DNA of 64,000 nt from Anaerolineales bacterium (GCA_016932715.1 JAFGCG010000053.1:499-64498); one strand, 5' to 3'; positions 1 through 27,975 are shown, counted from the stretch's first letter. Program-made: numbers and translations. The notes: generated by a model from the sequence alone, not told the origin.

Positions 1-881
1 TGCACAATATGGATGAGAACCAGATGGCGATCTGGCGCGGGACGAACCTGGGTATCATCTTTCAATTCTTTCAGCTGCTGCCTGCCCTCAACCTTCTGCA
101 AAATGTAATCCTGCCCATGGATCTGGCAGGGAAGTATTCGCCGCGCGAAAGACGCCAGCGCGCCGAGCATCTCTTGGAATTAGTAGGACTCAGCGAGCAT
201 CAGCATAAACTGCCAAGTATGATCTCCGGCGGTCAGCAGCAGCGTGCAGCGGTCGCGCGCGCCCTCGCCAATGATCCACCGATCCTCATCGCGGATGAAC
301 CCACGGGCAACCTGGACTCGAAGACAGCTGAATCGGTCTTTTCGCTTTTCAATGACCTGGTTGCACAGGGCAAGACGGTCATCATTGTGACGCACGATAG
401 TGGCCTCGCCAAACGCACCCACCGCACTGCACTCATCGCAGACGGCGAGATCGTCAACGAGTACCTGGCAAAAGCCTTGCCCACCCTCACCCCGGCTCAA
501 CTTCTGTCCGCCACTCACAAAGTCAAGGCGCGTGAGTACGAGGCCGGAGCAATGATCCTTACGGAAGGCAGGGATAACGACCAGTTTTATATCGTGTCCA
601 AAGGTACAGTGGAAGTCGTATTACCGCGCCCCAATCAATCCGATGTGGTCATTCTGCAATTAGGTCCCGGCAAGTACTTTGGCGAGATCGCCTTCTTCCA
701 CAATAGCAAGACCAACGCTTCGGTGCGCGCCTCCGAGAGCGGACCTGTGGAAGTGCTGGCGATCCGCTACGATCAGCTCAACGAATTGCTGAACGAGTCC
801 GAGGTCACGCGCGAGGCGCTGAGTCAAGCCGCCGACCGCCATCAGCAGGAAAACATCGAATTTCGGGAAGAAAAGGTCTGA
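1..881 (+). CDS. ABC transporter ATP-binding subunit (MacB/LolD-type NBD) fused to a C-terminal cyclic-nucleotide-binding-like domain; 5-prime end lies outside the window
   Basis: Frame is open to base 1 ([13 protein letters not shown] aligns with [13 protein letters not shown] of the paralog at 3309). ABC signature SGGQQQR, Walker [17 protein letters not shown]. Then [24 protein letters not shown] and ASVRA beta-roll motifs. Confidence 0.9.
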
Positions 882-882
882 G

Positions 883-6844: not shown

Positions 6845-6849
6845 TTAAA

Positions 6850-6943
6850 GTATACAGGTAACAAGTAGACAGGTAGATAAGTAAGAGTACGACTTGCCTA
6901 CCTGCTTACTTGTTTCCCTATATACCTACTTACCTATGTACAC
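6850..6943. repeat. Octamer-phased GTAnACAr / yTGTnTAC hairpin element (locus A)
   Basis: GTATACAG GTAACAAG TAGACAGG TAGATAAG ... CTACCTGC TTACTTGT ... ATACCTAC TTACCTAT GTACAC. Arms ACAAGTAGACAGGTAG (6861..6876) and CTACCTGCTTACTTGT (6898..6913) pair at 14 of 16 positions. It starts 6 nt after the permease stop. Confidence 0.6.
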
Positions 6944-6952
6944 GCTGGCGAT

Positions 6953-6991
6953 TATCATGTTTGTAAGCCAGTTACTATCATGTTTGTAAGC
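6953..6991 (+). promoter_or_regulatory. Two perfect 16-nt direct repeats TATCATGTTTGTAAGC spaced 23 nt apart, upstream of the histidine kinase gene
   Basis: Copies at 6953..6968 and 6976..6991. Confidence 0.45.
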
Positions 6992-7065
6992 GGGGCATGC
7001 CGGCAGCCAAAGTCCCCTGGTTTATAATCGACTGGACCAGTAAATCATCACATCCGGGCTCTTCC

Positions 7066-12106: not shown

Positions 12107-13372
12107 ATGGGGCGCATCGAGAAGACCGTTTTCATCAGCTACCGCCGGACGAACGTACCGTGGGCTTTGGCAATCTACCAAGACCTGACTATGCACGGCT
12201 ACGATGTGTTTTTTGATTATCAGAGTATCGATAGCGGGAATTTTGAAAAAGTCATCCTTGAAAATATAAAAGCCCGTGCGCATTTCATTGTAATTCTCAC
12301 ACCTTCGGCTCTGGAACGCTGTAAAGAACCTGGCGACTGGCTGCGACGTGAGATCGAAACCGCCATGGACGAAAAGCGCAACATCGTGCCCCTGATGCTG
12401 GAAAGTTTTGATTTTGGCAGTCCATTGGTGAAGGAAGCTTTAACCGGAAAGCTTGCCGCCCTCAGCACCTACAACGGTCTGCGCGTGTATTCGGAATACT
12501 TCTTCGAAGCCATGGATAAATTGCGCGAGCGGTATATGAATGTTGAAACAAGGGAAACTGCTGCGCTGTTCTTGAATGCAGAAGCAACAAAAATCACCAA
12601 AACTCAGAAAACGGCTGCCCGCGAAGCTCCACAAGTAGAAAAAGAACAACTCACTGCACAGGAATGGTTCGAGCGAGGCTATGTATTTCAGGGAGCAAAG
12701 AATTTGGATGAAGCATTTCGCTGTTATTCTGAGGCAATCCGTCTCGATCCCAATTTAGATGTCGCCTACAACAACCTGGGCAACACTTTAATAGGCCTGA
12801 AACGCTACGCCGAAGCCGAAGCCGCCTATCGCAAAGCCATCGAACTTAGCGAAGCATCCCCGTCAGGGAACAATCCATCCTATGCCACTGCTTACTACAA
12901 CTTAGGTTTACTTCTACATGAACATCTGAAGCGCTACGAGGAAGCCGAAGCCGCCTATCGCAAAGCCATCGAACTTGACCCCTTATACGCCACTGCCTAC
13001 TCCAATCTCACTATGTTATTGCGATTGACCAATAGAGTCGAAGAGGCAATGCCCTTGTTGGAGAAATTGATCGAGATCAATCCCGACGATTTCAATCCCT
13101 ATCTTGCCCTGGCATCGATCAATAAACAATTAGGAAAAGGTGCTTCCCCCGAATATCTCGCAAAAGCCCGGCAACTCATGCCAGAAGATGACTGGTACAA
13201 CCGCGCCTGCCTGGAAAGCGTTTGTGACAATTTTGATACGGCTTTTGACTGTCTTCAAAAAGCGGCGCAGCGCGAGCGCTTCAACCCCGCCTGGGCATGG
13301 GACGATCCAGACCTTCAGTGGATCAGGGATGATCCGAAGTTTGCAAAAATCGTCGGTCCAAAGCCAGCATAA
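12107..13372 (+). CDS. TIR domain protein with C-terminal TPR repeats (421 aa)
   Basis: N-terminus VFISYRRTNVPWALAIYQDL..GYDVFFDYQSI..ARAHFIVILTP..WLRREIETA is a TIR_2-type domain with a candidate catalytic Glu. C-terminal repeated AEAAYRKAIELxP.YA.AY.NLG TPR units. Confidence 0.85.
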   Translation: MGRIEKTVFISYRRTNVPWALAIYQDLTMHGYDVFFDYQSIDSGNFEKVILENIKARAHFIVILTPSALERCKEPGDWLRREIETAMDEKRNIVPLMLESFDFGSPLVKEALTGKLAALSTYNGLRVYSEYFFEAMDKLRERYMNVETRETAALFLNAEATKITKTQKTAAREAPQVEKEQLTAQEWFERGYVFQGAKNLDEAFRCYSEAIRLDPNLDVAYNNLGNTLIGLKRYAEAEAAYRKAIELSEASPSGNNPSYATAYYNLGLLLHEHLKRYEEAEAAYRKAIELDPLYATAYSNLTMLLRLTNRVEEAMPLLEKLIEINPDDFNPYLALASINKQLGKGASPEYLAKARQLMPEDDWYNRACLESVCDNFDTAFDCLQKAAQRERFNPAWAWDDPDLQWIRDDPKFAKIVGPKPA

Positions 13373-13429: not shown

Positions 13430-14941
13430 TTATGCCGTCAGATTTGCGGTGGGTAAATAGCGGGGCTGTCTGCGGAACTGGGTGGCTTGCTCGAACGCGT
13501 ACGCGAATTTGATCAACTCGGGCTCCTGCCAGGCCTGTGCAAAGAACGAGATGCCAACGGGCAAGCCAAAGATGTACCCCGCAGGCACGGTGATATGCGG
13601 GTATCCCGCGACGGCTGCGGGCGATGTGCTTTCCATATCCCAATTGTTCGCATCCCCATCGACCAGATCGATCACCCAGGCAGGCCCGCCTGTGGGCACG
13701 ATAAGTGCATCCAGTTTATGTTTGCGCATCGCGGCATCGATCCCCTCCTTGCGTGCCAGGCGCAGATTCTTCGCCAGGGCATCACGATATTTCTTATCGC
13801 GCAGCGACGTCGTTTTCTGGGCCGTGAGCATGGCTTCCTGCCCAAAGTAAGGCATCACACGATGACTGTTCTCTTCATTGAATTTGATCACATCTTCCAG
13901 CGAGTGAACGCGTTCGTTTCCACCCAGGGTTTTGAGATACTTGTTCAAATCCGCTTTGAATTCATAGTGCAGCACTTCCCGTTCTGTTTTGTTGAACTTG
14001 TCGAAGTTGGGCACATTCGCGGGATCGATGATCACCGCGCCCAAATGCTTCATGGCCTCGATGCAAATTTCGAAGATCTTGATGATCTTGGGATTTGTGC
14101 CGGCCATGTTCCTGGCAACACCGATCCGCGCGCCTTTGAGACCGTCGCGGTCGAGGAATTTTGCATAGTTGGAAAAGCTCCGCTTCCTGCTCAGCCTTGT
14201 AGCTGGATCCCGTTCATCGACCCCGGTCATCGCCCCGAGCAGGATCGCCGCATCGGCGACGGTGCGCGCCATCGGACCGGCGGTATCCTGGCTGTGCGCG
14301 ACGGGAATGATCCCGCTGCGGCTCAACAAGCCAAGGGTCGGCTTGATCCCCACGATGCCGTTCGTCTGCGCGGGGCAGATGATCGAGCCGTCGGTCTCGG
14401 TGCCCACAGCCGCCGCGCACAGGTTGGCCGCGACTGCCGCGCCCGATCCCGAGGAGGAACCGCAAGCCGAGCGATCCAGCGCGTAGGGATTGCGCGTCAA
14501 GCCGCCGCGCGACGACCAGCCGCTCACTGAACGTTTGCCGCGGAAGTTTGCCCATTCGCTTAAGTTGGTCTTTCCCAGGATCAAGGCACCCGCCTTGCGC
14601 AATTGCCGCACAAGGAAGGCATCCTTTGCCGCGAGGTGGCCTTCCAACGCAAGCGAACCGGAGGTGGTCTGCATCCGGTCATGTGTATCGATGTTGTCCT
14701 TGATCAGAATGGGAACGCCATGCAAGGCGCCGCGCACCTTCCCGGCTTTGCGTTCTTCGTCGAGCGCCTCAGCAATTTCGAGCGCATCGGGGTTCAACTC
14801 GATCACTGAATTGAGATAAGGACCATCCTTGTCTATCTCAGAAATGCGTGCGAGATACAACTCGGCGAGCCGACGGGCAGTCAACTCGCCAGATTCCATT
14901 TTGTCCTGAAGTTCAGCGATCGTCCATTCCGGAATGATCAT
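13430..14941 (-). CDS. Amidase (amidase-signature family)
   Basis: AS-family motif GGSSSGSGAAVAANL, ILIKDNID, 503 aa. Confidence 0.9.
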   Translation of the reverse strand: MIIPEWTIAELQDKMESGELTARRLAELYLARISEIDKDGPYLNSVIELNPDALEIAEALDEERKAGKVRGALHGVPILIKDNIDTHDRMQTTSGSLALEGHLAAKDAFLVRQLRKAGALILGKTNLSEWANFRGKRSVSGWSSRGGLTRNPYALDRSACGSSSGSGAAVAANLCAAAVGTETDGSIICPAQTNGIVGIKPTLGLLSRSGIIPVAHSQDTAGPMARTVADAAILLGAMTGVDERDPATRLSRKRSFSNYAKFLDRDGLKGARIGVARNMAGTNPKIIKIFEICIEAMKHLGAVIIDPANVPNFDKFNKTEREVLHYEFKADLNKYLKTLGGNERVHSLEDVIKFNEENSHRVMPYFGQEAMLTAQKTTSLRDKKYRDALAKNLRLARKEGIDAAMRKHKLDALIVPTGGPAWVIDLVDGDANNWDMESTSPAAVAGYPHITVPAGYIFGLPVGISFFAQAWQEPELIKFAYAFEQATQFRRQPRYLPTANLTA

Positions 14942-14981
14942 CCCACTTGCTCCTTTGAAATCAGTGCCGAGGCAAGCGGGG

Positions 14982-15419
14982 TCATCGCCCGCCGCCTGTG
15001 ATGTAGCGTTCCAATTGAGACAGCATCATTTGCTGCACTTCGATGACCTCTTTGAGTACATCGCGCATGGAGAGCAACCCCACCAGCTCCCCGCCATCGT
15101 AAACGGGTAAATGACGGATATTCTTCTCGATCATCAACGACATACACGCCTCGAGCGGCTGGCTGGAATCAACTGTGATCACATCGCTTGTCATAATCTC
15201 GTTGATTTTGGTATCTTTTGCGTTCCTGCCCATCAATTCCACCTTGCGAATGCAGTCCCGCTCGGAAACAATGCCTTCAATCGTGTCTTTCGTCATTACC
15301 AATAATGCCCCGATATTGTGCTCTGCCATCATCTTCAGAGCGTCCAAAACGGTTGCCTGCGGTGCAATCGTGAAGACCTCGCGCCCCTTTTTACGGATCA
15401 TATCCCGGACGGTTGCCAT
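14982..15419 (-). CDS. CBS domain pair protein
   Basis: 145 aa with two CBS repeats (GALLVM..GIVSERD; RHLPVYDGGELVGLLSMRD). RBS GAAGGAGAG upstream. Confidence 0.88.
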   Translation of the reverse strand: MATVRDMIRKKGREVFTIAPQATVLDALKMMAEHNIGALLVMTKDTIEGIVSERDCIRKVELMGRNAKDTKINEIMTSDVITVDSSQPLEACMSLMIEKNIRHLPVYDGGELVGLLSMRDVLKEVIEVQQMMLSQLERYITGGGR

Positions 15420-16583: not shown

Positions 16584-16675
16584 ACCTGCCCCGGGCTGGG
16601 AACCTCGTGATTTGGCGCAGTCTACTTGTCATCTTTTTGCATTATGGTAAGGAATACTCCGCTGCTATACAATAA

Positions 16676-16684
16676 TGCTATAAT
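16676..16684 (+). promoter_or_regulatory. Extended -10 element (TGCTATAAT), possible promoter of the six-gene module
   Basis: Perfect TGnTATAAT in the AT-rich 480-nt non-coding stretch upstream of 16932. It would imply a leader of about 240 nt. Confidence 0.25.
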
Positions 16685-16931
16685 TGTCATTAATGGGTAA
16701 AAATGATGCGTTTTAATCGGGAAAGAAGACTTTCAATGGTTCCAATTTCCAGTCGAGCAGGAGACGGTTAGCATCCAATTTACCGACGATTTGATTGATA
16801 GTGGGTTGTGTCAGAATTTTAAGAGTTTGCATACAGGATTTGCCAGGTTAATTCGTTACAGTAATTTGTCCCTCGCTGCATAGCTGCACACGTACATTTC
16901 ATCATTGAGCTACCTGATCTCTGGAGGAGAC

Positions 16932-18026
16932 ATGAACAGTTTATTGAATGAGATTGGCAAATATTGGCTCGAAGCGCGGGGAAGGAGCCGGCCTACACCA
17001 CGGTATCCCTTCGCTGATAATGAAATTGTCACACCGGGCTTTCCGCTGCGCGTTCGATCATGGTGGAACGCGATCTATATTAATTTGCACCCAACCCACT
17101 ACGCTGTAGCGATTGCACCTGATGGAAAGATCATAAATCTCAAGGGCGGCTATAATTATCCGCTTCCCGCCGGTCAATATACCCTGCATTACATCGACAA
17201 GCAGAATCGGGCAGCTGTTATTCCCCGTATTTCGGAAACAACTCTCGATGGATCACAGGTCTCCCTGGAACTTGTCATTACCTATCGAGTTGTCGACCCG
17301 ATCAAGGCGCTGGAAGTGCAGCAGCCGGTCAACACGCTTTTCATCTTCATCCAGTCGGATTTGAAGGAGTTTATTCGCTCCCACAAGTATGATGAAATCG
17401 TTGGAAGCAACGATGGACGCACAGTCGAAAATGGTTTGGTGGCGCGGTATATCAAGGAGCAACATGCTGGGCGTCATCAGATCTCCAAGCTCTTTTTCAT
17501 TGCGGACATTGTCGTGGAGGAAAAGGTTGGAGATCCAAAACTGACGGAAATCAGGGAGAATTTCCAGGCAGAACAAAGACAAAACATTGCCAAAAGTGAG
17601 CTGCTCAAACAAAATCAGGACCTGGAGCGGAAAATTGCAGCCCAGGAGGCAGAAATCAAGCGAATTAAGGCTCAATCGGATGCAGCCCAGCAGGATATCC
17701 TGCAACGCATGCAATTGCAGAGAATAGACCTCGAAAAGGCCAGGATGGAGCTTCAGTTCCGGCAGGATAAGATGATGCGCGCCATGGATGCCATTGCCCA
17801 GGCGTTTTCGACCCCGACCTATCCAAGAGATCCGCGGGAAGTTGAGATCATCAGGGAACTGCTGGGGGCTCTGGGAGGCGATTCCACCACCGATGCCCCA
17901 CCGCCGGAAGGGACGACTGGCTCGGAGAGCCGTCCGGCTCCCGGCTCGACCAAAACTCCAAACCCGGAGAAGATCGATGCCCTGACCGATACACTCTTAA
18001 ATTGGCTGGATCGCAGGCGATCCTGA
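16932..18026 (+). CDS. SPFH/Band-7-like protein with long C-terminal coiled coil; no TM helix
   Basis: TLDGSQVSLELVITYRVVDPIKAL plus surrounding beta-rich region is typical of an SPFH core, followed by heptad-rich QAEQRQNIAKSELLKQNQDLERKIAAQEAEIKRIKAQ. The ATG at 16932 is preceded by GGAGGAG. The track start at 16905 is TTG. Confidence 0.75.
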   Translation: MNSLLNEIGKYWLEARGRSRPTPRYPFADNEIVTPGFPLRVRSWWNAIYINLHPTHYAVAIAPDGKIINLKGGYNYPLPAGQYTLHYIDKQNRAAVIPRISETTLDGSQVSLELVITYRVVDPIKALEVQQPVNTLFIFIQSDLKEFIRSHKYDEIVGSNDGRTVENGLVARYIKEQHAGRHQISKLFFIADIVVEEKVGDPKLTEIRENFQAEQRQNIAKSELLKQNQDLERKIAAQEAEIKRIKAQSDAAQQDILQRMQLQRIDLEKARMELQFRQDKMMRAMDAIAQAFSTPTYPRDPREVEIIRELLGALGGDSTTDAPPPEGTTGSESRPAPGSTKTPNPEKIDALTDTLLNWLDRRRS

Positions 18027-18042
18027 CTTCGAGAAACATAGG

Positions 18043-19167
18043 ATGACCACCCCCTGGATCGAACTTGACAAGTATCAGGATCAGGATGACTTCGCCGGGC
18101 CAGGTTTTTCTGAGCATGTCTGGCAGGCACTCTTCGCGTGTCAGGTTGGGATTCGCTCTCATCAGGATTGGGTCAAGCTGAAATGGGGATTCAACGCCTT
18201 GGCGCTTTTCGATGAGGCCCTTGAACGTCAAAAACTGTTCCTGGAATCCCAATATGCGATCAGGAAGGAATTGGGGAGCGAGAACCCGGATCACCGGACA
18301 CTGGCATTCCGCTATATTAACCGGCCGGGGGAAGGATTGCTGCCGGCCGTCATCGGCAAGATCCAGGCGCGCACAGAGGCAGAAGCCAGGGAGACGGCCC
18401 TGGCATTCTACGGTGCATTGAAATCCATCTTTCCTTACGACTATGTTCTAGCGCCAGCGTTCTCCAGAGATGAATTCATCCACATATCCGGGATGGATAT
18501 TCTGGATGACAGCAACAACCAGTTCGATCTGGCTCAGGTCAAGCGCTTTGAAGTTCCCATTCGCTTTGACCGTCATTCATCCGTCCTGCAGGGTCTCTGG
18601 CAATCGGGTGCCCGCAGCCACGAACAAATATGGCGTTCGCTGGCTGCATCTGTCCACCCTTTGCTCATGAACATATCCCTCCGCTGCACGGTTCTCTACG
18701 AGAAGGAACGCGAACGGTTAGCAGAGTGCGCGGAAGAGATATCGCAGATTGCGTCCGATAAATTTCTCTACCAGAGAACATTGCCGGCATTAAAGCAGTG
18801 GCACGAGGCTTACATCGAACGCCGGCTGGCTCCCTGGAAAAAATTCTTTTATTTGCAGGTCCATCTGGCTTCGCCTCGAAAGATCGACGAAAATCTCTTC
18901 CAGACCGTGGGGACGTCCCTGACATGGAGCGCAAACAGCGCTGCTCTGCCCGGATATTACGTGATCTCCCCAAAGCTTAACGAAGTGCCAGCATGGCGGA
19001 GAAAGCTGAGAAACCTGGACTTCATCTTTTCAGGCAGCTACCTTCCGGTTCCACGCCTGGCTGAGGTAGCCGATATGGATGAAGTCTTTGCCGTCATGCG
19101 CCTGCCCTACTCACCTCCTGAAGATGGATTCCCAGATGTGACCTTTGCCAGCAACAGAACGACGTAG
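18043..19167 (+). CDS. Hypothetical protein (374 aa), no recognisable motif
   Basis: Long ORF 16 nt after the SPFH gene, on the same strand, with codon usage consistent with its neighbours. Confidence 0.75.
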   Translation: MTTPWIELDKYQDQDDFAGPGFSEHVWQALFACQVGIRSHQDWVKLKWGFNALALFDEALERQKLFLESQYAIRKELGSENPDHRTLAFRYINRPGEGLLPAVIGKIQARTEAEARETALAFYGALKSIFPYDYVLAPAFSRDEFIHISGMDILDDSNNQFDLAQVKRFEVPIRFDRHSSVLQGLWQSGARSHEQIWRSLAASVHPLLMNISLRCTVLYEKERERLAECAEEISQIASDKFLYQRTLPALKQWHEAYIERRLAPWKKFFYLQVHLASPRKIDENLFQTVGTSLTWSANSAALPGYYVISPKLNEVPAWRRKLRNLDFIFSGSYLPVPRLAEVADMDEVFAVMRLPYSPPEDGFPDVTFASNRTT

Positions 19168-19174
19168 GAGTTTT

Positions 19175-21388
19175 ATGGGACCTGAATCCAACGATCTCGT
19201 GATCATCCGCGTTGTCAAACACCTGCCGATGGGGCTCGGCGTTGAGACAGAAAACGGTCAGCCGGGGATTGTCCGTGTACGCGAGATATCCTGGGATCCT
19301 GAACGATCCAGAAACTGGAGAGAGAATTACCCAATAGATTGGAGCGGGGAAGCCTATCCCTTATCCACAAGGGACCAGCTCAAAGAGTTCAGCCTGAAAC
19401 TAGCAGAAAATGATCCATGGGAGGAGATTCCGAAAATAATCGAGAGGGGCAGGCTTTACGAAGGTGTGGTGACTGGCATCACGGAGTATGGCGCGTTCAT
19501 CGAAATTGCATCCGGGGTGACCGGGCTTCTGCATCGATCGCAGCTGCCGGCCTGGGTTAAGGCATCGCCCATCGACTTGTTTTGGCCCGGGGATAGAGTG
19601 TTCGTCACGGTTCAGGAGGTTAAATATAGCGAAAGGAAGATCGCGCTTGGATTTGCTGAATCCACCCGACAGAGCGGGCCGAGAGACCTGCCTCAGGATA
19701 TCCACCGGTTGAGCCAGTGGAAGGGTGACAATCCCGATGTGGACGTTTTCATGAAAGAGAACGCCCAAAAGGAACATTATTTGGTCGTGGAGGATGATCC
19801 GGAACAGTCGCTCATGATCTCCAACTGGCTGCGTCGTTTTGGTCAACAAGTAGACGTGGCCACGGGAGCAGAGGAGGCACTGGCGTTCCTCGAGAGAGCC
19901 ACACCCGATGTGGCTTTCATCGATGTTGGCTTACCCAACATGAACGGCGTAGAACTCTCCAGGATTATCCTGGAAAAGTGGCCCAAAATCCGCGTGACTA
20001 TCACGACTGATTGGGCCAGAGCCGAAAGTGTTATGAATGAGCTTGAGGAGTTACAACATCGCCACGCGGAATTGCTGACGAAACCTCTATTGCCCGAAGA
20101 TTTGATCGGCGTGATCCGAAAAACAAGATTGGAATACCCCGTGGAGGAGGTCGGACGTCAGGATGCGGGAGTTTCAAACCCTGCCTCCGGTCGCAAGAGC
20201 GTAATCCGGCCCAGTCTCCATAACAAAAACATGCTTGATCAGTTCCGTCGCTATTTGGGCTTCGAACTGGCTATCTTGTTCGCCACCGATAAGATCCACC
20301 GCCAGGTGTCCATTGTAGAATGCTCTGGCGATGAAACCTCCCTGCACACCGCATCCATGTCTCAGTTGATTTACAGTCCGGTACGGGATGTAGCTGAAGA
20401 CCACTGCATGATCACAATCGAGGATATCCGAACTCACAGCCGTGATCGGTTCCGTTATTTACTGGAGCTTTATCCAAACCTGAGGTCGTGTATCGGCGTA
20501 CCGGTTTCCTCACGCACGCCCAGTGACTTTGCTCTTTTCGCACTGGATAAACACTCCCATCAGATCAGCCAGGAACAAAAAATATTTGCAGAAGCCGTTG
20601 CACTGGCGATCGGGACCGCGCTTGAACAGAAGAATTTCAACGAAAGGTCGATCCTGATCCAGCGCTCGGCGCTGATCGGCCATCTGACGCGCGGCATGGT
20701 GCACGAGATCAACAACCTGGTGGGACCCCTCCATTCCAGGCTGGATAACCTCCAGGGCAGCCTGAAACGGATGGAGAAAAGACAGGCTCGGGCCACGGCA
20801 ACAGACGCCGATAACACGTTAATCACAAACGAATTGGTTGAAATCCAGAAGAATGTCCGCAAAATCATCAATACGACGCGCATGTTCGGGCGGATTGCCG
20901 CAAAAGACAAGAATGAAGTCCTGCGGATCGATGAGATCGTGAATGAGACCATTCACTTTATGCGAGATCTTAGTGAGGGATCGCGCGTGAAGATCACTTT
21001 TACTCCCCCCGAGCATCTGCTTGTGATCAAAAACCAGGCGGCGGCACTGGAGCAAGTCCTTCTGAATGTGCTTCTGAACGCAGTCCAGCAAATCGCTGAA
21101 CTGCGCCCTGATTCAGGCGGTTGGGTTCACGTGCAGATCGATCATCCATTTCAGAAAGGCGAATCGGCTTTTTTTACGATCCGCATCGAGGATAATGGTC
21201 CGGGAATTCATATGGGGTTATGGGAGAGAATATTCGAAGCAGGCTACACCACGCGGGCAGACGGAAGTGGGATTGGTCTCTATATATCATGGAATCTGAT
21301 GGAGGAACTGGGAGGTCGGATCTATGTCAAAGAGAGCCATGTCTTGAGTGGGACTACGTTCGCGCTGGAAATACCCTATCATCTTTAG
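19175..21388 (+). CDS. Hybrid sensor kinase: two S1/OB-like modules + receiver + GAF-like region + HisKA + HATPase_c
   Basis: S1-like GLGVETENGQPGIVRVREIS and GVVTGITEYGAFIEIASGVTGLLHRSQL. REC YLVVEDDPEQ...AFIDVGLPNMNG...LTKP. H-box MVHEINNLVGPL. G-boxes EDNGPGI, GSGIGLY. The ATG at 19175 is preceded by AGGAG. Confidence 0.85.
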   Translation: MGPESNDLVIIRVVKHLPMGLGVETENGQPGIVRVREISWDPERSRNWRENYPIDWSGEAYPLSTRDQLKEFSLKLAENDPWEEIPKIIERGRLYEGVVTGITEYGAFIEIASGVTGLLHRSQLPAWVKASPIDLFWPGDRVFVTVQEVKYSERKIALGFAESTRQSGPRDLPQDIHRLSQWKGDNPDVDVFMKENAQKEHYLVVEDDPEQSLMISNWLRRFGQQVDVATGAEEALAFLERATPDVAFIDVGLPNMNGVELSRIILEKWPKIRVTITTDWARAESVMNELEELQHRHAELLTKPLLPEDLIGVIRKTRLEYPVEEVGRQDAGVSNPASGRKSVIRPSLHNKNMLDQFRRYLGFELAILFATDKIHRQVSIVECSGDETSLHTASMSQLIYSPVRDVAEDHCMITIEDIRTHSRDRFRYLLELYPNLRSCIGVPVSSRTPSDFALFALDKHSHQISQEQKIFAEAVALAIGTALEQKNFNERSILIQRSALIGHLTRGMVHEINNLVGPLHSRLDNLQGSLKRMEKRQARATATDADNTLITNELVEIQKNVRKIINTTRMFGRIAAKDKNEVLRIDEIVNETIHFMRDLSEGSRVKITFTPPEHLLVIKNQAAALEQVLLNVLLNAVQQIAELRPDSGGWVHVQIDHPFQKGESAFFTIRIEDNGPGIHMGLWERIFEAGYTTRADGSGIGLYISWNLMEELGGRIYVKESHVLSGTTFALEIPYHL

Positions 21389-21400
21389 AAAGAGGCTGTG

Positions 21401-24400
21401 ATGTGCCGCGTACTCGTAGTCGATGACGAATTGTTTGGCGGAGAAACCGTCAAACTGGTCATCGAAACCAATTCGAAAAACACCGTCGACGTCGTGACGA
21501 CTACCAGCCAGGCAGTGGACCTGGTGACGCGCTCCATTGTAGACGGAAAATGCTACGAGGCCTTTCTAATAGACCAGCAATTGGGGGATGGAGAGAATGG
21601 GATTGAATTGATGAAGACCCTGAATCGTATCAGCCCGGACACAGAAGCCATCATCATCACCGGATACGGGGACAGTGCGAACGGATTGAACGCCTACCGG
21701 GCTGGCGCCTTCCGTTATCTTACCAAGCCCTTCGACAATCAGGAATTGCTCTATTTGATCGATTCGTTGCGGGAATGGCACAAGACACGGCAGGAGCATG
21801 GCTGGCAGAAGATCTTCAGTGAAATGATGGAGGCGGCACTTCAGCGATTCAACTTTAAGGACACCGCCGAGGTTGTCGTGAACTATTCGCTCAAGCTGGG
21901 CTTCGAGCGCGCCCACCTCTTCTGGGTTCCCACAGGGAAAGAGATCAACAAAGAGAATCTATTCATTGGCATCGCCTGCGCCGGACATAATCGCATTCAA
22001 AACTTCAAAGGCCGCCTGTATCCCTTGCTCGAATGGTTCGATCCGCATGACATTACCAGGAACTTCAACGCAATATTTATCCGCGACTTTAGCGAAGAAT
22101 CGGCGAACACAGCCAATTCAGACGGATACCAGTTGCCTCTCCTGGAGGCGACCCTACTCCCGATCGGGCGCGCAGACACATTGGCAGGGTTTCTGCTGCT
22201 CGATTATGGCGAGCACAAGAGGACCGTCAGCGAGCATGAACGCTCGCTCCTGAACCTGTTCGCCCGCCAGGTTTCCGTCGTCCTGAACCAGGCCAGTCTG
22301 CATGGCCGCGAGCAGCGGCTGCTCCAGGAATCGGCCACCATTCAAAACATCGGCCGTCAGATCACGACGAAGGCGGCCTCCGCGAACCTGATCGACCTGC
22401 TGGAAGAGATCCGCAGGCAGATCGGGAAATTGATGGATGTCTCGAACTGTTCCGTGTTCCTGAAAAATGAAGAGAACAACGAGCTTGATCTTCATCTTCT
22501 GTATGAGAATGGCAGAAGGCGCAAAGGGCTCATTCGACCCATCGGTGATGGCTTCGAGAAGTACCTGCTGAATTCCGAGAGGGCGGTTGTGCTTTCCTAT
22601 ATGGACCTGGATATATTTATCGAGGACCACCAAACCGATTCCGGCGACGCCATCCCCTCCACTGTGCTGGGTGTGCCGTTGCGCGTCGAGAACAAGACGA
22701 TCGGAGGGATCGTCGTCTCCCAGTCCAGTATTCAGGGAAGCGAAGACTTCGAGCGCAATAGACGCATCCTGCTCTCCGTCGCGGACCAGGTGGCGGGAGC
22801 CATTCAGATCAGCCGGCTTTCGGAGGCTGAGAAGGAAGACGCTCGTCGTATGCAAGTGCTGCAGAAAGCCAGCACCGAGATGCTGAGGATTGCGCAGGAA
22901 AATGAAGACCATTTTTGGCTGATGCTCCTGACTATTGCCACCTCCAATTTCGGACTTGGATTCAATCGGGCCTTATTGTTCCTGGAGGAGGAAAACTTCC
23001 GCAGGTTGTGCGGCCGCATGGGAGTAGGCACGGAAAGTACAAAAGAAGCCAGCAGGGACTGGGAAAGGGATGAAAAACGGAGATATGATTTCCAGGACTT
23101 CCTGACTGACCTGGGAACGAGGAGAAGGCGCCATACTTCTTTCGAGAAATTGGTACGGCAGGTCCAGTTCGACCTGGCGGAAGAAGAAGACGCGATCGGT
23201 CAGGTCGTTCGAGAAAAGCAGAGAACCACTCTTCAGCCAGCGGAAATTGCGGCGCGGCTGCCGGTCGAAATTACCCGCACCTTTTCCCTGGCGACATGTG
23301 CCATTCTGCCTCTGCGAGCCGGCGACAAGGTTCTGGGGATGGTGATCGTCGATAACAAGCACAATCGCCGGCCCTTGAATGAGCGCTCGCTCGATCGGCT
23401 CCAAAGTCTTTTGGATAACGCGGGCCTGGTGTGGGAAACGCGCCGGGAGCAAAAAAAGAGTGAAAGTCTGCTGAGTGCCAATTACAGGATCCTGAGCGGC
23501 GCCAGGGATCAATCGCTGCGAGAAACGTTGAACCAGATCTGCAGGACCGCCCGCTTCTTCAGCGGAGCAGACTGGGCGATCATCCTTCCGATCCTGGAGG
23601 ACGGTCATCGCCGGTTTGACGTGAACAATATTGGCTTTGATGGAGAATTGCAGAACAACCCCATCGATGGGATTGTCGATTCGACACACCTGGGAGGGAT
23701 TTCGCAGCACGTTCTGAGAAGAAGCAAACTGGTGGTCAATGACATCGATGCGGAGAGCAGGGTCAACCAGCAGCTTAACATCTCGCAGCATCACTTTATA
23801 CAAAGCGAAGGTGTGAAAGCGCTGATCGGGGCGGCTGTGCGCAGCCGAGATGATGAGAAGCCACTTGGGCTTTTGTATCTCGATTATCGCCAGCCGCATA
23901 TTTTCTCCAAATTGGAAACACAGCAGGCGCTCTCCTTTGCCAGCCTGGCCGGCGTCGCGATCTCGAATGCCCGCCGTATGGATGAGCTTCACCAGCGACG
24001 GCAATTAAAGACAGCCAAGGAAATTGCGGAGACGATCGGTCTGGGACTTGATCTCGAAAAGACCATGGAAGCCACGATTCAAATATTGCACACCGTATTT
24101 AAAAAGACCCGGCCGTGTGTCTTACTCTACCAAAATGACATCAAAGCACTGAAGTTTGCGCCTGCAACCCTCAAGTACTACAAGATCGAGAATACGAAAT
24201 ATCGCAGGCAGGACACTTTCCCACTTAACGGGCGCTCGATCGCCTGCCGAGTGGCGAGAAAGGCCTTGCGCACCAAAAAGGTTGAGCATGAGAACATTGG
24301 GGATGTGACCAATGATGCCGACTACCTGCCGCTCGGCCAGAACACTCAATCCGAGCTATGTGTGAGTCTGATGAATACAAGGAACGAATTGCTGGGTATT

Positions 24401-25186
24401 TTCGCGCTGGAGCGAGACAAGTTGAATGGGTTTGATAATGCAGATGAAGATTTGGTCAAAACAGTGGCACAGCAATTGAGCGTCGCGATCGAGCGTGCCC
24501 AACAAAGTGAAGAACTCGCCTTTCGAACGATTGTGGCAGCTCAGACCGCCTGGGCAGCAGACATTGCTCACGAGATCAATAATGAGGTTGGACAAATCCG
24601 GAACTGGACATACATGCTAAGAGACCGGCTGGAGGATGGCTCAGAACTGCAGGAGTTTGCAAAAAGAATTGAGGAAAGTGCAGCTGTTCTCTCAAGTACT
24701 GGTCCCTGGAGCGATCAACCCCCTCAGATTGTAAAGCTCGACCTGTTCCTGGAACGAAACCTGAAAAAACTTACCAGTCAGCGAAGCCTGACAGTGGAAT
24801 TCCAACTTGAGGCGCCGGATGTCTACATACGGGTTAATCCCACGGAATTTCAACACGTCCTGCGTCATCTGGTTCGGAATGCAGCCCGTGCCATGAGCAA
24901 CTCAAAAACAAAGAAGCTGATGGTGACCACACGCTGCATAGAGAGCGGCAGGGTAGAGGTTCTGTTTCAAGACTCCGGCCCAGGGATTAGTAAGGAAGTA
25001 CAGCTATCCGTTTTCCAGCGCCCGATCACCACCAAGGGCCGAGGCGGCTATGGCTTGCTCCTTGTCCGACAGATGATCGAGGATATGCACGGCCAGATCA
25101 GACTTGTGCCCCAGAAACGAGGCCGGGGCGCAGTCTTTTCCATCCAATTCCCGATTGCCAGTGTTATGGACGGGACGGTGGAATAG
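21401..25186 (+). CDS. Hybrid sensor kinase: N-terminal receiver + multiple GAF-like repeats + HisKA + HATPase_c (about 1261 aa)
   Basis: REC VLVVDDE...FLIDQQLGDGENG...LTKP. Repeated GAF-like segments (LGVPLRVENKTIGGIVV; ILPLRAGDKVLGMVIVDN; LGLLYLDY; LCVSLMNTRNELLGIFALE). H-box IAHEINNEVGQI. QDSGPGI, GGYGLLL. An alternative GTG start is at 21398. Confidence 0.85.
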   Translation: MCRVLVVDDELFGGETVKLVIETNSKNTVDVVTTTSQAVDLVTRSIVDGKCYEAFLIDQQLGDGENGIELMKTLNRISPDTEAIIITGYGDSANGLNAYRAGAFRYLTKPFDNQELLYLIDSLREWHKTRQEHGWQKIFSEMMEAALQRFNFKDTAEVVVNYSLKLGFERAHLFWVPTGKEINKENLFIGIACAGHNRIQNFKGRLYPLLEWFDPHDITRNFNAIFIRDFSEESANTANSDGYQLPLLEATLLPIGRADTLAGFLLLDYGEHKRTVSEHERSLLNLFARQVSVVLNQASLHGREQRLLQESATIQNIGRQITTKAASANLIDLLEEIRRQIGKLMDVSNCSVFLKNEENNELDLHLLYENGRRRKGLIRPIGDGFEKYLLNSERAVVLSYMDLDIFIEDHQTDSGDAIPSTVLGVPLRVENKTIGGIVVSQSSIQGSEDFERNRRILLSVADQVAGAIQISRLSEAEKEDARRMQVLQKASTEMLRIAQENEDHFWLMLLTIATSNFGLGFNRALLFLEEENFRRLCGRMGVGTESTKEASRDWERDEKRRYDFQDFLTDLGTRRRRHTSFEKLVRQVQFDLAEEEDAIGQVVREKQRTTLQPAEIAARLPVEITRTFSLATCAILPLRAGDKVLGMVIVDNKHNRRPLNERSLDRLQSLLDNAGLVWETRREQKKSESLLSANYRILSGARDQSLRETLNQICRTARFFSGADWAIILPILEDGHRRFDVNNIGFDGELQNNPIDGIVDSTHLGGISQHVLRRSKLVVNDIDAESRVNQQLNISQHHFIQSEGVKALIGAAVRSRDDEKPLGLLYLDYRQPHIFSKLETQQALSFASLAGVAISNARRMDELHQRRQLKTAKEIAETIGLGLDLEKTMEATIQILHTVFKKTRPCVLLYQNDIKALKFAPATLKYYKIENTKYRRQDTFPLNGRSIACRVARKALRTKKVEHENIGDVTNDADYLPLGQNTQSELCVSLMNTRNELLGIFALERDKLNGFDNADEDLVKTVAQQLSVAIERAQQSEELAFRTIVAAQTAWAADIAHEINNEVGQIRNWTYMLRDRLEDGSELQEFAKRIEESAAVLSSTGPWSDQPPQIVKLDLFLERNLKKLTSQRSLTVEFQLEAPDVYIRVNPTEFQHVLRHLVRNAARAMSNSKTKKLMVTTRCIESGRVEVLFQDSGPGISKEVQLSVFQRPITTKGRGGYGLLLVRQMIEDMHGQIRLVPQKRGRGAVFSIQFPIASVMDGTVE

Positions 25187-25193
25187 GCCTTCG

Positions 25194-26867
25194 ATGGAAA
25201 ATATACAAGCAAATTTCATGAATCAGAAACCGCGCATCCTGCTTGTCGAGAACGACCCACGCGCACGTGAAGCATACAGTGCTCTCCTCAAATATTGGAA
25301 TTACGATCCGATCCTGGCTGTGGGGGAAGGATGGTCGTTGATCGAAGACGCGCGGGCCAAAGCCAGGCAGGCGCGCTGCCTGCTTGCCCTGATCGATTTG
25401 CACCTGCTCGATGATTACGATGAAGATGACACCAGCGGCCTGAAATTAGCCACACAGGTCGGTACGATCCGGGCCATCATCCTGAGCGGAAACCCGAATC
25501 AAACCGTCCTGCTCGAGATGCTGGACAAACATAAGGATATCCATTTTATCAATAAGGGCGCTTCCGCCGAGGAGAAACGCCGCATCCTGGATACTGAAAT
25601 GGCAAAGATCAGTGCCGTCAAGCGCGGGCTGCATATTAGCCCGCCCGAGCTTATGAACGAAATCGCCCAAACCACCTTTGGGGCATTGACCGGCGAATAT
25701 TCCGACCAGGTTGCCGATACTCTTGCGCAGCTGTTCCCGAATGCAACCGGGTTATGGATCGAGAAACTGGATGCGGGTTCATCCGTCTCGCATGCCTCTG
25801 TTGTGCCGAGACCCAATTCCGTGGTGCTGAGGGTAGCCGAAGATGATTTGGAGCCCGTGGTGGTGAAATTAGCCCGAGCCGGAAAAATCGGGATAGAAGT
25901 CCGGTGCTACGAGAAATTCATCTTCAGAAGGCTCCCCGGAAGCTTCATCGCGCGGCTCGAGCGTTTTGCCATCCAATGGGACATAGGCGGGGCACTTTAC
26001 TCCTACATTGGCGATTTCGATGTCAAGACATTCTCACGCTACTATCAGGAGCGCCCAATCGAGGATATCCGGGAATGCCTGAACTCCTTCTTCACAGTTT
26101 CCTGGCGCAGGCATTACGAAAGAGGGCGCGACCAAAGCAACATTTCCCTCTTCGATCTTTATGGACTGGTATGGGGGAACTGGTACGAAAAACGAGTCAA
26201 GAACTTTCGATCCAGGGCTTCCCTGTACGATCCGGGCGTTCATCAAAAGTTAGGACTCCCGGAGCCCATCGAGTGGTTCAAAAAGAACATTGCAGAGAAC
26301 AGAGCAAAGGATCTCAGCTTCGTGGAAAATACCCGGATAGCTGTCACACACGGGGATTTGCATGGCGACAACCTGCTGATCGACAGCCAGAGGAATGCCT
26401 GGGTCATCGATTTTGAACGTACGGGAGAAGGTCATGCCCTGCAGGACTTCATCGAGCTGGAGTCCGATATCATTAACCGCCTGGAGGCTCAGGCTCATTC
26501 GGGAGACACCTCCTCTTACTATCGGATGTGTCTGACCGTCGCCAGCCAGACAGAGATCAGGGAACTTGAGCGATCTGAAATGGAGAGTGCCGATCCGGGC
26601 ATCCGAAAGGCGCTTCAAACCATATCTATTCTACGGTCGCTTGCCCGCCAATGCACCGAGATCACAGATGCACGCCAGTATTTACTGGGTCTGCTCTTCA
26701 ACACGATCTTCCGTGCTACAATCAATAACAATGAAAAGCACCACGAACGCCAAAGCCGTGCGCTTATACTGGCCGGAATCTTCTGTCACCGGCTGGATCA
26801 CTGGAATGATCCCTGGCCCCCGGAAGAGTGGCAACATATTCTGAACACCAGGAGGAATTATGCTTGA
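25194..26867 (+). CDS. Receiver domain fused to an APH/eukaryotic-like protein-kinase-fold domain
   Basis: REC ILLVENDP...LALIDLHL...FINKG. Kinase-fold motifs PVVVKLAR (beta3 Lys), VTHGDLHGDNLLID (catalytic loop HxDxxxxN), WVIDFERTG (DFG equivalent). The ATG at 25194 is 7 nt after the upstream stop (alternative ATG at 25218). Confidence 0.8.
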   Translation: MENIQANFMNQKPRILLVENDPRAREAYSALLKYWNYDPILAVGEGWSLIEDARAKARQARCLLALIDLHLLDDYDEDDTSGLKLATQVGTIRAIILSGNPNQTVLLEMLDKHKDIHFINKGASAEEKRRILDTEMAKISAVKRGLHISPPELMNEIAQTTFGALTGEYSDQVADTLAQLFPNATGLWIEKLDAGSSVSHASVVPRPNSVVLRVAEDDLEPVVVKLARAGKIGIEVRCYEKFIFRRLPGSFIARLERFAIQWDIGGALYSYIGDFDVKTFSRYYQERPIEDIRECLNSFFTVSWRRHYERGRDQSNISLFDLYGLVWGNWYEKRVKNFRSRASLYDPGVHQKLGLPEPIEWFKKNIAENRAKDLSFVENTRIAVTHGDLHGDNLLIDSQRNAWVIDFERTGEGHALQDFIELESDIINRLEAQAHSGDTSSYYRMCLTVASQTEIRELERSEMESADPGIRKALQTISILRSLARQCTEITDARQYLLGLLFNTIFRATINNNEKHHERQSRALILAGIFCHRLDHWNDPWPPEEWQHILNTRRNYA

Positions 26868-27909
26868 GATTGGTCCCCAACACCCCATGGATTACAGACA
26901 GGAGATTCTCAAACCATTTTTCCGATATGTCGAAGGCACTGAGTCGTTTTATGTAGTGGGTGCAGCCAGCATGGGAAAGACGCGTTTACTCGACTTTCTC
27001 ACACGCGCCGACGTGCAGAAATACTACCTGGGTGAACGTACTGACCACCATTGGCTGATCCGTGTGGACTTGAATCGTCTGGCAGTCAAAAAAGAGGAAT
27101 GGGGATTTTACGAACTGCTGCTCAATTCCATTCTGCTGGATCTGAGCAACCATGAGAATATCGATAATCTAAACACTGAAATCGCAAAACTTGATTCTGA
27201 GATTCTCCAAAACCGTGATTCACGACTCGCCTCAAGATTTTTCGAGCTGGTTGTCATCAAGTTGTGCCAGGTGCATCAGCTGAAACTCTGCTTTCTATTT
27301 GACGAATTTGACGAGGCTTACAGGAGCTTTCCACGGGAGACATTCCTGCAGCTCCGCGCCGTGCGTGACGCGAACAAGAATCGAGTTTCATTCGCGTTGT
27401 TTTTGCGCGAATTGCCTGAGCACCTGCGGCCTCCAATTGAGAATGAAAGCTTTTACGAACTGCTCTCGCGCAACCGCATCGGGCTTGGACCCTATACCCG
27501 CCAGGATGCCTTGCGCATGATCCAGCAACTGGAAGCGCGCCGGGAACACCCTCTTAGCCCCGAGCAAAGAGAGAAATTGTTCGATGCCAGTGGTGGCCAT
27601 CCCGGTTTGATTCAAGCCCTTATGAGCACGCTGATCGACATTCCTCGCGCCGCTGATAAGCTCGATGCAGCAGGCTGGACGGAGTGGCTGAGCAGGCAGC
27701 CCGCTGTCATAGAGGAATGCCGCAAAATATGGAACGGATTATCCGAGGAGGAAAGGGAAGGTCTCTCTGCATTCGTGGCAGGAAATTTCAGCAAAATATC
27801 CGTACCAGTTGGGAACTTGTTAGTCACAAAAGGCCTGCTCCGAGCGAATGATCAAGGCGCGCAGTTCTTCAGCGGTATCTTCGAACGGTATGTCAAGAGT
27901 CTGCGCTAG
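26860..27909 (+). CDS. Minimal STAND-like P-loop NTPase (349 aa, no sensor repeats)
   Basis: Walker A GAASMGKT, Walker B LCFLFDEFDEA, GGHPGLIQAL (GxP-type motif of NB-ARC/MalT-like ATPases). 8-nt overlap with the upstream gene. Confidence 0.75.
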   Translation: MLEIGPQHPMDYRQEILKPFFRYVEGTESFYVVGAASMGKTRLLDFLTRADVQKYYLGERTDHHWLIRVDLNRLAVKKEEWGFYELLLNSILLDLSNHENIDNLNTEIAKLDSEILQNRDSRLASRFFELVVIKLCQVHQLKLCFLFDEFDEAYRSFPRETFLQLRAVRDANKNRVSFALFLRELPEHLRPPIENESFYELLSRNRIGLGPYTRQDALRMIQQLEARREHPLSPEQREKLFDASGGHPGLIQALMSTLIDIPRAADKLDAAGWTEWLSRQPAVIEECRKIWNGLSEEEREGLSAFVAGNFSKISVPVGNLLVTKGLLRANDQGAQFFSGIFERYVKSLR

Positions 27910-27945: not shown

Positions 27946-27975
27946 AAAAAGACTCCCACAGGCTGGGAGTCTTTT
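27946..27975. terminator. Bidirectional Rho-independent terminator; copy 1 of a twin hairpin
   Basis: AAAAA-GACTCCCA-CAGGC-TGGGAGTC-TTTT: 8-bp GC-rich stem flanked by an A-run and a T-run, between convergent genes. Confidence 0.7.

Follow-up and report, generated by a model that had tools for sequence, protein, structure and literature searches.

Positions 16932 to 27909 of a 64,000-nt stretch of DNA from an Anaerolineales bacterium (GCA_016932715.1, JAFGCG010000053.1:499-64498) hold six plus-strand open reading frames (ORFs), A to F, that are packed tightly one behind the other. The whole stretch is referred to here as the window, and positions follow its numbering unless another locus is named. 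We find that the six genes form a cytoplasmic, conserved operon restricted to the Anaerolineales/Anaerolineae lineage of the Chloroflexota, and we are highly confident that they make up a single conserved module, with A, B and F as its core and C, D and E as an insert between B and F. The module is previously undescribed and built from known domain families. Its genes and flanking elements are as follows.

16676-16684, plus strand: candidate extended -10 promoter element TGCTATAAT, proposed from a consensus match and conservation
16685-16931, plus strand: leader of 247 nt, AT-rich (G+C about 0.42), from the -10 element to the start of A
16932-18026, plus strand: gene A, 364 aa, SPFH/Band-7 protein (Pfam Band_7, orthologue profile)
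18043-19167, plus strand: gene B, 374 aa, stand-alone VirB4 N-terminal-domain-like fold (AlphaFold2 (AF2) model, Foldseek, profile search)
19175-21388, plus strand: gene C, 737 aa, S1, receiver, GAF-like region and histidine kinase (Pfam, PDB profile, NCBIfam)
21401-25186, plus strand: gene D, 1261 aa (1262 from the GTG at 21398), receiver, GAF domains and histidine kinase (Pfam)
25194-26867, plus strand: gene E, 557 aa, receiver and APH/TCAD9-fold kinase (Pfam, profile of 14 orthologues)
26860-27909, plus strand: gene F, 349 aa, P-loop NTPase without a sensor (motifs, AF2 model, Foldseek)
27947-27975, both strands: bidirectional intrinsic terminator, common to the convergent downstream gene (stem of 12 bp, loop of 5 nt, A5 and U4 on either side)

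The six frames, their coordinates and the size of their junctions had been read from the DNA in a first-pass annotation; our ORF map agrees with them, and an independent gene caller recovered the same six genes, of 364, 374, 737, 1261, 557 and 349 aa, in a public assembly of the same DNA (Logan SRR13394437). The junctions measure 16 nt between A and B, 7 nt between B and C, 12 nt between C and D (9 nt with the GTG at 21398) and 7 nt between D and E, and the E-F junction is an 8-nt overlap, ATGCTTGA. That annotation had also suggested a single operon ending at a strong bidirectional terminator, and both suggestions stand: the junctions are tight, there is one terminator, and the gene order recurs in 14 loci. 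The terminator hairpin folds at -19.1 kcal/mol (z = -4.73 against shuffles, with 0 of 200 shuffled sequences folding equally well), and a pattern scan for internal terminator-like sites in the operon gave no excess over shuffled sequence. None of the six proteins contains a transmembrane-like segment, the top 19-residue Kyte-Doolittle mean being 1.37.

Related loci were gathered by looking up exact proteins and by scanning metagenomes and a genome set with one member per species, and were compared to the window proteins by BLASTP and hidden Markov models. They show the following layouts.

A-B-C-D-E-F in the same order, 14 loci: the window, L010, L011 (cut), L014, L015, L016, L017, L018, L019, L021, L024, L026, L039 and L052
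A-B-F alone, 9 loci: L003/L012, L005, L051, L022 (F in three frames), L027, L030, L031, L033 and L041
A-B-E-F: L006/L007
A-B followed by an unrelated histidine kinase: L008
Deletion scars or fragments: L020, L035 and L043

Co-localisation of the homologues in other genomes is therefore strong, with the same order kept in six-gene loci whose lowest identities to the window proteins are 36% for B, 26% for A and 41% for F. The block had first been read as a flat six-gene unit, and this part of the description has to be replaced. A-B is an invariant pair, in that B directly follows A in all loci, even the most distant, L045 and L046; F belongs to the core; and C-D-E is optional, as A-B-F occurs alone in nine loci and A-B-E-F in one. 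In L045 (1716-10894), A-B is preceded on the same strand by a 1021-aa STAND-TPR protein, a radical-SAM protein and an NYN-domain (RNase-like) protein, with no small F gene, and in L046 it lies near an ACT-TGS-nSTAND1 protein and an F-like gene. In L030 (719-7970) and L023 (64-8263), a paralogous set comprising a GAF(-PAS)-histidine kinase, a receiver-TCAD9 kinase and an F-like NTPase is found just upstream of A-B. E and F are thus a recurrent pair, overlapping by 8 nt in the window and appearing again in the paralogous sets of these two loci. A paralogous-set region is also listed for L027, at 6598-7986.

The six-gene order is kept in at least 14 uncultured, filamentous bacteria, and all named sources are Anaerolineales or Anaerolineae. 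Two short A-B contigs, L009 and L013, are binned in metagenome-assembled genomes labelled Pontiella sp. and Syntrophothermus sp.; these labels are probably binning errors rather than signs of cross-phylum transfer, because every other named source carries an Anaerolineales, Anaerolineae or other Chloroflexota label. Several copies appear decayed. In L020 (10900-11604), a deletion has fused the N-terminal part of C with the C-terminal part of E; in L022 (11221-12321), F is spread across three reading frames; L035 (3316-4224) encodes a 302-aa D/E chimera; and L043 holds a shortened D-like histidine kinase (534 aa) and a broken E, whose two pieces lie on opposite strands. Some of these copies may be assembly errors and not true pseudogenes. 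The rarity of the family and its decayed copies imply that the module is dispensable.

Protein A starts with a beta-rich region, followed by the SPFH/Band-7 domain (about residues 53-226) and a coiled coil; a disordered Pro/Gly/Ser linker then leads to a conserved C-terminal tail. Pfam Band_7 matches it at 26.5 bits (gathering score, 23.6), and a profile built from 17 orthologues reaches the archaeal stomatin PH1511 at 2.3e-6 and HflK at 0.014; such a profile is needed, the single sequence giving weak matches only against the PDB. A transmembrane segment was not found in A (top 19-residue Kyte-Doolittle mean, 0.83), and a domain scan of the window genes placed neither NfeD nor FtsH among its neighbours, so that its initial description as a Band-7/SPFH core with a coiled coil, without a transmembrane helix and without an NfeD partner, is correct in each part. 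The tail ends in …LTDTLLNWLDRRRS in the window and in …NLL.PKKKK in other clades. It is amphipathic and basic, with a hydrophobic moment of 0.61, and is a possible membrane-targeting or docking motif.

Protein B had been set down as lacking any recognisable motif. It indeed has no match in Pfam, NCBIfam, PADLOC or PHROGs, and its NCBI record reads 'MAG: hypothetical protein JW730_06335 [Anaerolineales bacterium]'. However, structure and profile comparisons do give it relatives. In Foldseek, the AF2 model of B (pLDDT 83, pTM 0.88) aligns over about 400 columns with TrwK/VirB4 of the R388 type IV secretion system, in its N-terminal domain (E 1.6e-7), and also finds VirB4-like proteins of Bacillus phages (3.5e-8). 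A profile search of 1.84 billion representative proteins returned only 160 relatives. The distant ones among them are 840-1060 aa long, B-like over their first ~400 residues and an FtsK/HerA/TrwB (VirD4)-type ATPase over the remainder, and one relative (P0178) is an N-terminal TIR-B fusion. Homologues of B form 173 clusters at 48-100% identity, all of about 373 aa and only from Anaerolineales or Chloroflexi metagenome bins. As judged from the model and the profile, B is not an orphan and is predicted to have a VirB4 N-terminal-domain-like fold, homologous to the N-terminal regions of FtsK/HerA/VirD4-type ATPases. It superposes on the N-terminal domain of TrwK/VirB4 but, unlike these proteins, has no ATPase domain, and no other type IV secretion genes lie near the operon according to the domain scan of the window genes.

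Protein F is composed of a nucleotide-binding domain, a helical lid with a GxP-type SGGHPGL motif and a winged helix. Its motifs GAASMGKT (Walker A), LFDEFDE (Walker B) and SGGHPGL, assigned by inspection, are invariant or nearly so in 25 orthologues. With the AF2 model (pLDDT 85), Foldseek finds archaeal Orc2/Cdc6 (1e-6), the PF01637-type ATPases PAB2304 and SSO1545, Apaf-1, and the plant NLRs Roq1 and RPP1 (TM score 0.50-0.53); sequence or profile searches of the PDB with F returned noise only. No C-terminal sensor repeats (TPR, WD40 or LRR) are present, as the winged helix is the last domain of the 349-residue protein. The fold, on which the STAND assignment is based, thus suggests a STAND/Orc-type switch without a sensor. 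Some relatives in the F family carry an N-terminal TIR domain (P0328, P0350), and an F paralogue in L030 carries a C-terminal Trans_reg_C DNA-binding domain of the OmpR/PhoB type.

We also considered whether B and F might be the two parts of a split VirB4-like ATPase and rejected this. F is not the missing ATPase half of B, because the F profile matches the fused ATPases only at the P-loop (E 0.02-0.6), and the fold of F is AAA+/STAND rather than FtsK/HerA. A B-type domain is coupled to an oligomeric P-loop NTPase in two settings, namely by fusion in the ATPase relatives and within the operon in the case of F.

The three proteins of the insert are signalling proteins. Protein C begins with a degenerate S1-like module, followed by an S1 domain (73-165), a receiver (203-314), a GAF-like region (352-484), a HEINN H-box and a histidine kinase ATPase domain (622-735). 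Pfam detects S1 (2.7e-14), Response_reg (1.4e-16) and HATPase_c (1.7e-17, 64.3 bits), and residues 73-165 match ribosomal protein S1 in the PDB at 1.3e-31. Of the initial reading of C as two S1 modules, a receiver, a GAF domain and a histidine kinase, the second S1, the receiver and the HATPase domain are clear, but the first S1 is weakly detected, in multi-repeat alignments alone (NCBIfam rpsA models align residues 6-167), and GAF_2 falls below its cut-off. Protein D has a receiver (5-120), about five GAF domains, a HEINN H-box and a kinase ATPase domain (1148-1253), as had been proposed, with Pfam matches to GAF (2.2e-43 in 4 stretches), GAF_2, GAF_3, Response_reg (1e-15) and HATPase_c (1.1e-16, 61.7 bits); HisKA alone is below its cut-off (21.3 against 26.9 bits), and it is not reported in C. 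The HEINN H-box is found in both proteins, and AtoS-, EspC- and PrsK-type kinase models of NCBIfam align across the kinase core. By these features, C and D are two-component histidine kinases with an HATPase_c domain and an H-box.

Protein E had been read as a receiver fused to an APH/eukaryotic-like kinase fold, and the profiles bear this out. Pfam does not detect the receiver (about residues 10-135), which is matched to CheY-type receivers (about 1e-7) by a profile built from 14 orthologues; here too the profile is needed, since the single sequence gives weak matches only against the PDB. The phospho-acceptor Asp68 is invariant and Lys121 nearly so. The kinase part matches Pfam TCAD9 at 84 bits (cut-off, 40), though over no more than positions 277-421 of the 429 in the profile, and APH scores 37.9 bits. 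The catalytic motifs VVVKLAR with Lys225, HGDLHGDN and IDFE are conserved across orthologues, and with these motifs intact the kinase is predicted to be active. C, D and E all carry CheY-like receivers with a phospho-acceptor Asp and a conserved Lys, by Response_reg in C and D and by the profile in E.

The spacer upstream of A is AT-rich, as first noted (G+C 0.40-0.42 against 0.546 for the window), but its proposed length of about 480 nt depends on the start chosen for the divergent aldolase-like neighbour: it is 483 nt with the ATG at 16448 and only 299 nt with the longest-ORF ATG at 16632. A block common to the window, L027 and L030, CAATAATGCTATAAT, includes the extended -10 element and ends at 16684 in the window. 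A σ70-type promoter, TTGCCA-N17-TACAAT, is kept 90-235 nt upstream of A in seven loci (L005, L008, L010, L011, L022, L031 and L033). We regard the element at 16676-16684 as the candidate promoter of the operon. Leaders upstream of A are long across loci (95-250 nt). In the window, GGAGGA (16923-16928), the ribosome-binding site, has a possible pairing partner in the conserved pyrimidine block GTCCCTC (16868-16874), and RNAalifold on six loci gives six pairs between the conserved UCCUCU-type block and the ribosome-binding site, all essentially invariant and without covariation support. The UCCUCU-like block could perhaps mask the ribosome-binding site. A structured RNA in the leader was rejected, as there is no Rfam match in the leader and only this invariant 6-bp pairing of an anti-Shine-Dalgarno-like block with the ribosome-binding site, without covariation.

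The flanks of the operon contain an amidase, a CBS protein and the aldolase-like gene upstream, and DUF6953, an isochorismatase and Fe-S flavoproteins/oxidoreductases downstream. The amidase-CBS flank is found again only in L006/L007, and L005 and L051 have flanks in common; at this divergence, flank synteny does not inform on mobility. The first-pass annotation had judged the block less G+C-rich than its flanks and had taken this as fitting horizontal acquisition. The direction of the difference is right, but it is marginal: G+C is 0.527 in the module against 0.546 in the window, inside the window's own range, and G+C at third codon positions (GC3) is 0.57-0.65 against 0.59-0.74 in the neighbours (0.53 in a TIR-TPR gene set apart from these). 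Relatives of B were absent from IMG/VR viral contigs, as were relatives of B or F from 72,556 plasmids, and a mobile element was rejected on these grounds. With the small shift in G+C and GC3, the housekeeping flanks partly syntenic with L006 and the lack of plasmid or viral copies, horizontal acquisition is not supported.

Other genes in the window and in one related locus deserve mention. About 3.5 kb upstream of the module, at 12107-13372 on the plus strand, lies a gene for a 421-aa protein in which TPR repeats come after an N-terminal TIR_2 domain; it has the lowest G+C (0.489) and GC3 (0.531) of the genes checked and may be an independent conflict-type gene. A 742-aa histidine kinase with an N-terminal 7TM region (HisKA_7TM) and two PAS domains is encoded at 6997-9225 on the plus strand, with no evident link to the module. 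Near the A-B-F genes of L003 lie a TIR_2, HSP70 and DnaJ_C protein (13739-15415) and an HTH-AAA_16-TPR protein (497-3109).

The fused family, in which a B-like domain is joined to an FtsK/HerA/TrwB ATPase, has 335 homologues in many phyla, as proteins of ~850 aa. CRISPR-cas genes are neighbours in all three distinct contexts examined (four loci, L047-L050).

L047, 3400-6494: fused B-like ATPase directly 3' of a ClpP-like gene, beside type III genes (Cas10 palm, RAMPs)
L048, 8001-10601 (L049 is the same context in a second sample): fused B-like ATPase beside RT-Cas1 and Cas2, with no ClpP-like gene
L050, 7453-10613: fused B-like ATPase directly 3' of a ClpP-like gene, beside RT-Cas1, Cas2 and Csm6

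The ATPase and the ClpP-like protease may be an undescribed CRISPR-associated pair.

The early view that the gene set matches no named system is confirmed: there are no meaningful PADLOC matches, and none of the papers searched describes the gene combination. A known defence system was rejected, PADLOC and PHROGs giving no meaningful match. In concept, the module comes closest to the NTP-dependent conflict systems of multicellular prokaryotes, including vWA-MoxR-VMAP and iSTAND ternary systems, in the study of which TCAD9 was defined (Kaur, Burroughs, Iyer and Aravind 2020, PMC7159879); TCAD9 is also listed among CRISPR-linked CARF/SAVED proteins (PMC10910872). Like the module, these systems occur in filamentous/multicellular lineages, with Chloroflexi among the carriers, are organised around a central P-loop NTPase, combine a conserved core with variable add-ons, and have the APH-like TCAD9 kinase, receivers and TIR among the attached domains. 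Unlike them, the module has no vWA, MoxR or VMAP genes (Pfam found neither vWA nor MoxR among the six proteins or their neighbours) and no effector-associated domains. Its SPFH and VirB4-N-like core partners are not described there, and two histidine kinases are integral to it, whereas the study has no histidine kinases among the effectors (PMC7159879).

Some features are shared with bacterial antiviral STAND proteins (Avs/AVAST) and NLR-type receptors. The nucleotide-binding domain, lid and winged helix of F resemble those of Apaf-1, Roq1 and RPP1, and some F relatives carry TIR. However, Avs/NLR proteins hold sensors and effectors within one polypeptide, while F has neither C-terminal sensor repeats nor a fused effector, sits in a multi-gene operon and has no PADLOC Avs/NLR match. 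We note that a 2026 census of STAND proteins left out clades without sensors of at least 400 aa. The anti-phage system Detocs (histidine kinase, Hpt, receiver-effector) shares with the module His-Asp phosphotransfer to a receiver fused to an output, but the module has no Hpt, its output is a kinase where Detocs has a nucleosidase, it includes SPFH, VirB4-N-like and STAND parts as well, and none of the six proteins has a PADLOC Detocs match at E ≤ 0.01.

Two further parallels are analogies. In Streptomyces, the Hanks-type Ser/Thr kinase AfsK phosphorylates the STAND-type transcription factor AfsR. The module likewise pairs a kinase gene with a STAND-type NTPase, and the L030 paralogue of F has a winged helix of the OmpR/SARP class; in contrast, AfsR is large (SARP, NB-ARC, TPR), whereas the kinase of the module has an APH/TCAD9 fold and would be receiver-gated, and F has no TPR. 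In plants, HIR proteins of the SPFH family associate physically with the NLR RPS2. Protein A resembles these proteins and those of SPFH operons (stomatin-NfeD, HflK/C-FtsH) in being an SPFH protein with a coiled coil, and the plant case offers a scaffold-plus-STAND parallel; unlike SPFH operons, the module has no transmembrane anchor on A and no NfeD or FtsH, and the partner of A is a VirB4-N-like protein.

From the gene set, the domain identities, the conserved catalytic motifs, the gene order and the division into core and accessory genes, we infer a working model that adds which proteins contact each other, which way the phosphoryl group moves, what E acts on and what the biological output is. 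C and D, as soluble hybrid histidine kinases, would read cytoplasmic signals: C might sense RNA or single-stranded nucleic acid via S1, and both might sense small ligands via their GAF domains. They would autophosphorylate on the histidine of the HEINN H-box, and the phosphoryl group would pass to receiver aspartates, above all Asp68 of E. Phosphorylated E would then turn on its own APH/TCAD9-fold kinase and, being translationally coupled to F, modify F or its partners and so gate the ATP-dependent oligomerisation of F. B would serve as an adaptor that bridges the NTPase F to an oligomeric SPFH scaffold formed by A, with the amphipathic, basic C-terminal tail of A possibly serving as its membrane attachment. 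The output would most likely be a regulated stress or infection (conflict-type) response of filamentous bacteria. We put this regulated switch module forward tentatively; taken as a full mechanism that includes the conflict or stress output, it falls a little short of an even chance.

Relatives of the core proteins point to two types of output: TIR domains, which occur in fusions with proteins of the B or F type, and DNA binding, through the OmpR-type domain of an F paralogue. A conflict role is favoured by the TIR-B and TIR-F fusions, the origin of TCAD9, the CRISPR-linked B-like ATPases and the patchy, decay-prone distribution. The 'defence' and 'RNA-sensing checkpoint' readings are both possible. 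A bolder version, which we consider rather doubtful, is an unrecognised immune or programmed-cell-death system of filamentous Chloroflexota, in which the S1-histidine kinase would sense foreign or aberrant RNA, a phosphorelay-gated APH-fold kinase would license the STAND switch on a VirB4-N-like adaptor and an SPFH scaffold, and TIR would be the effector in sister variants. Such a system would parallel the plant partnership of SPFH (HIR) proteins and NLRs.

Several observations weigh against the conflict-type switch. The assignment of F as a STAND switch without sensor repeats, made in the first-pass annotation, agrees with the motifs and the absence of repeats, but F fails the Pfam cut-offs (AAA_16 27.3 bits against 32.6; nSTAND1 16.6 against 27.1), and by fold its match to Orc/Cdc6 and to archaeal PF01637-type ATPases is equal to or better than that to STAND modules. 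PADLOC-DB 2.0 (Avs, Detocs, Thoeris and others) returned only two weak matches, both in the receiver region of C, and none for A, B, D, E or F, and PHROGs gave no match. There is no obvious toxic effector in the six-gene version. A TIR-F gene on a short contig (L025) has no B or E upstream, and TIR-F may act alone. That E is the kinase of F is proposed from gene adjacency, and the F paralogue with the OmpR-type domain fits plain transcriptional signalling equally well. The flanks of the window are housekeeping genes and not a defence island, vertical inheritance is suggested by the partial synteny of the window with L006 and of L005 with L051, and no member of the module comes from a cultured organism.

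Several of these points favour an ordinary, non-immune signalling cascade, which we consider possible but unlikely. Here, the C/D phosphorelay would act on E, E would phosphorylate F, and F would regulate transcription via its winged helix, as in AfsK-AfsR, with A and B as targets or co-factors in filament or envelope physiology. In L030, the F paralogue with Trans_reg_C is preceded by genes for a GAF-PAS-histidine kinase and a receiver-TCAD9 kinase, as such a cascade would have it, and the terminal winged helix of F is like the DNA-binding winged helix of Orc/Cdc6; yet a winged helix is standard in every STAND module and does not require DNA binding, and the AfsK/AfsR parallel is an analogy. 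The housekeeping flanks with partial synteny, the lack of defence-database matches, the lack of an evident toxic effector in this version and the different histidine kinase after A-B in L008 are all in keeping with plain signalling. The occurrence of A-B-F without any kinase in nine loci, the TIR fusions on B-type and F-type proteins and the patchy distribution with decayed copies speak against it.

The regulated switch has two further, weaker competitors. One would have the operon serve as a membrane scaffold or in protein quality control, in the manner of HflK/C-FtsH or stomatin-NfeD, with A as a cage, B and F loading or remodelling clients and the kinases tuning the whole to stress. In its favour, A is a genuine SPFH protein that also carries a coiled coil, SPFH proteins classically partner ClpP-like (NfeD) proteases, and in other phyla fusions of B-like domains to FtsK/HerA-type ATPases are encoded immediately 3' of a gene for a ClpP-like protease. 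Against this, the window and the orthologous loci have no protease, NfeD, FtsH or transmembrane segment, and F is by fold an AAA+/STAND switch without pore-loop unfoldase architecture, whose profile does not match the FtsK/HerA part of the fusions; we hold such a role to be improbable. The other is that the genes are chance neighbours or loosely linked, without a joint function. Histidine kinase and receiver genes are very abundant in Chloroflexota genomes, but an identical order in 14 loci across deep divergence, junctions of 7-16 nt with one 8-nt overlap, one promoter region with one terminator, and coordinated losses in which C-D-E are missing together, along with deletion scars, effectively refute chance.

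In sum, the operon is an undescribed module in which an invariant SPFH/VirB4-N-like pair is joined to a minimal STAND/Orc-type NTPase, a type missed by censuses that require long sensors. For the family of B, with about 160 representatives that carried no annotation beyond 'hypothetical', the predicted fold and the relatives give a first foothold in structure and evolution. The wiring of the module is rare, in that His-Asp phosphotransfer appears to gate a protein-kinase-fold enzyme adjoining an NTPase switch. Should the conflict reading be correct, the module would add immunity under phosphorelay control to a major group of environmental and wastewater bacteria that is uncultured; should the signalling reading be correct, it would be a new regulatory cascade of three tiers.

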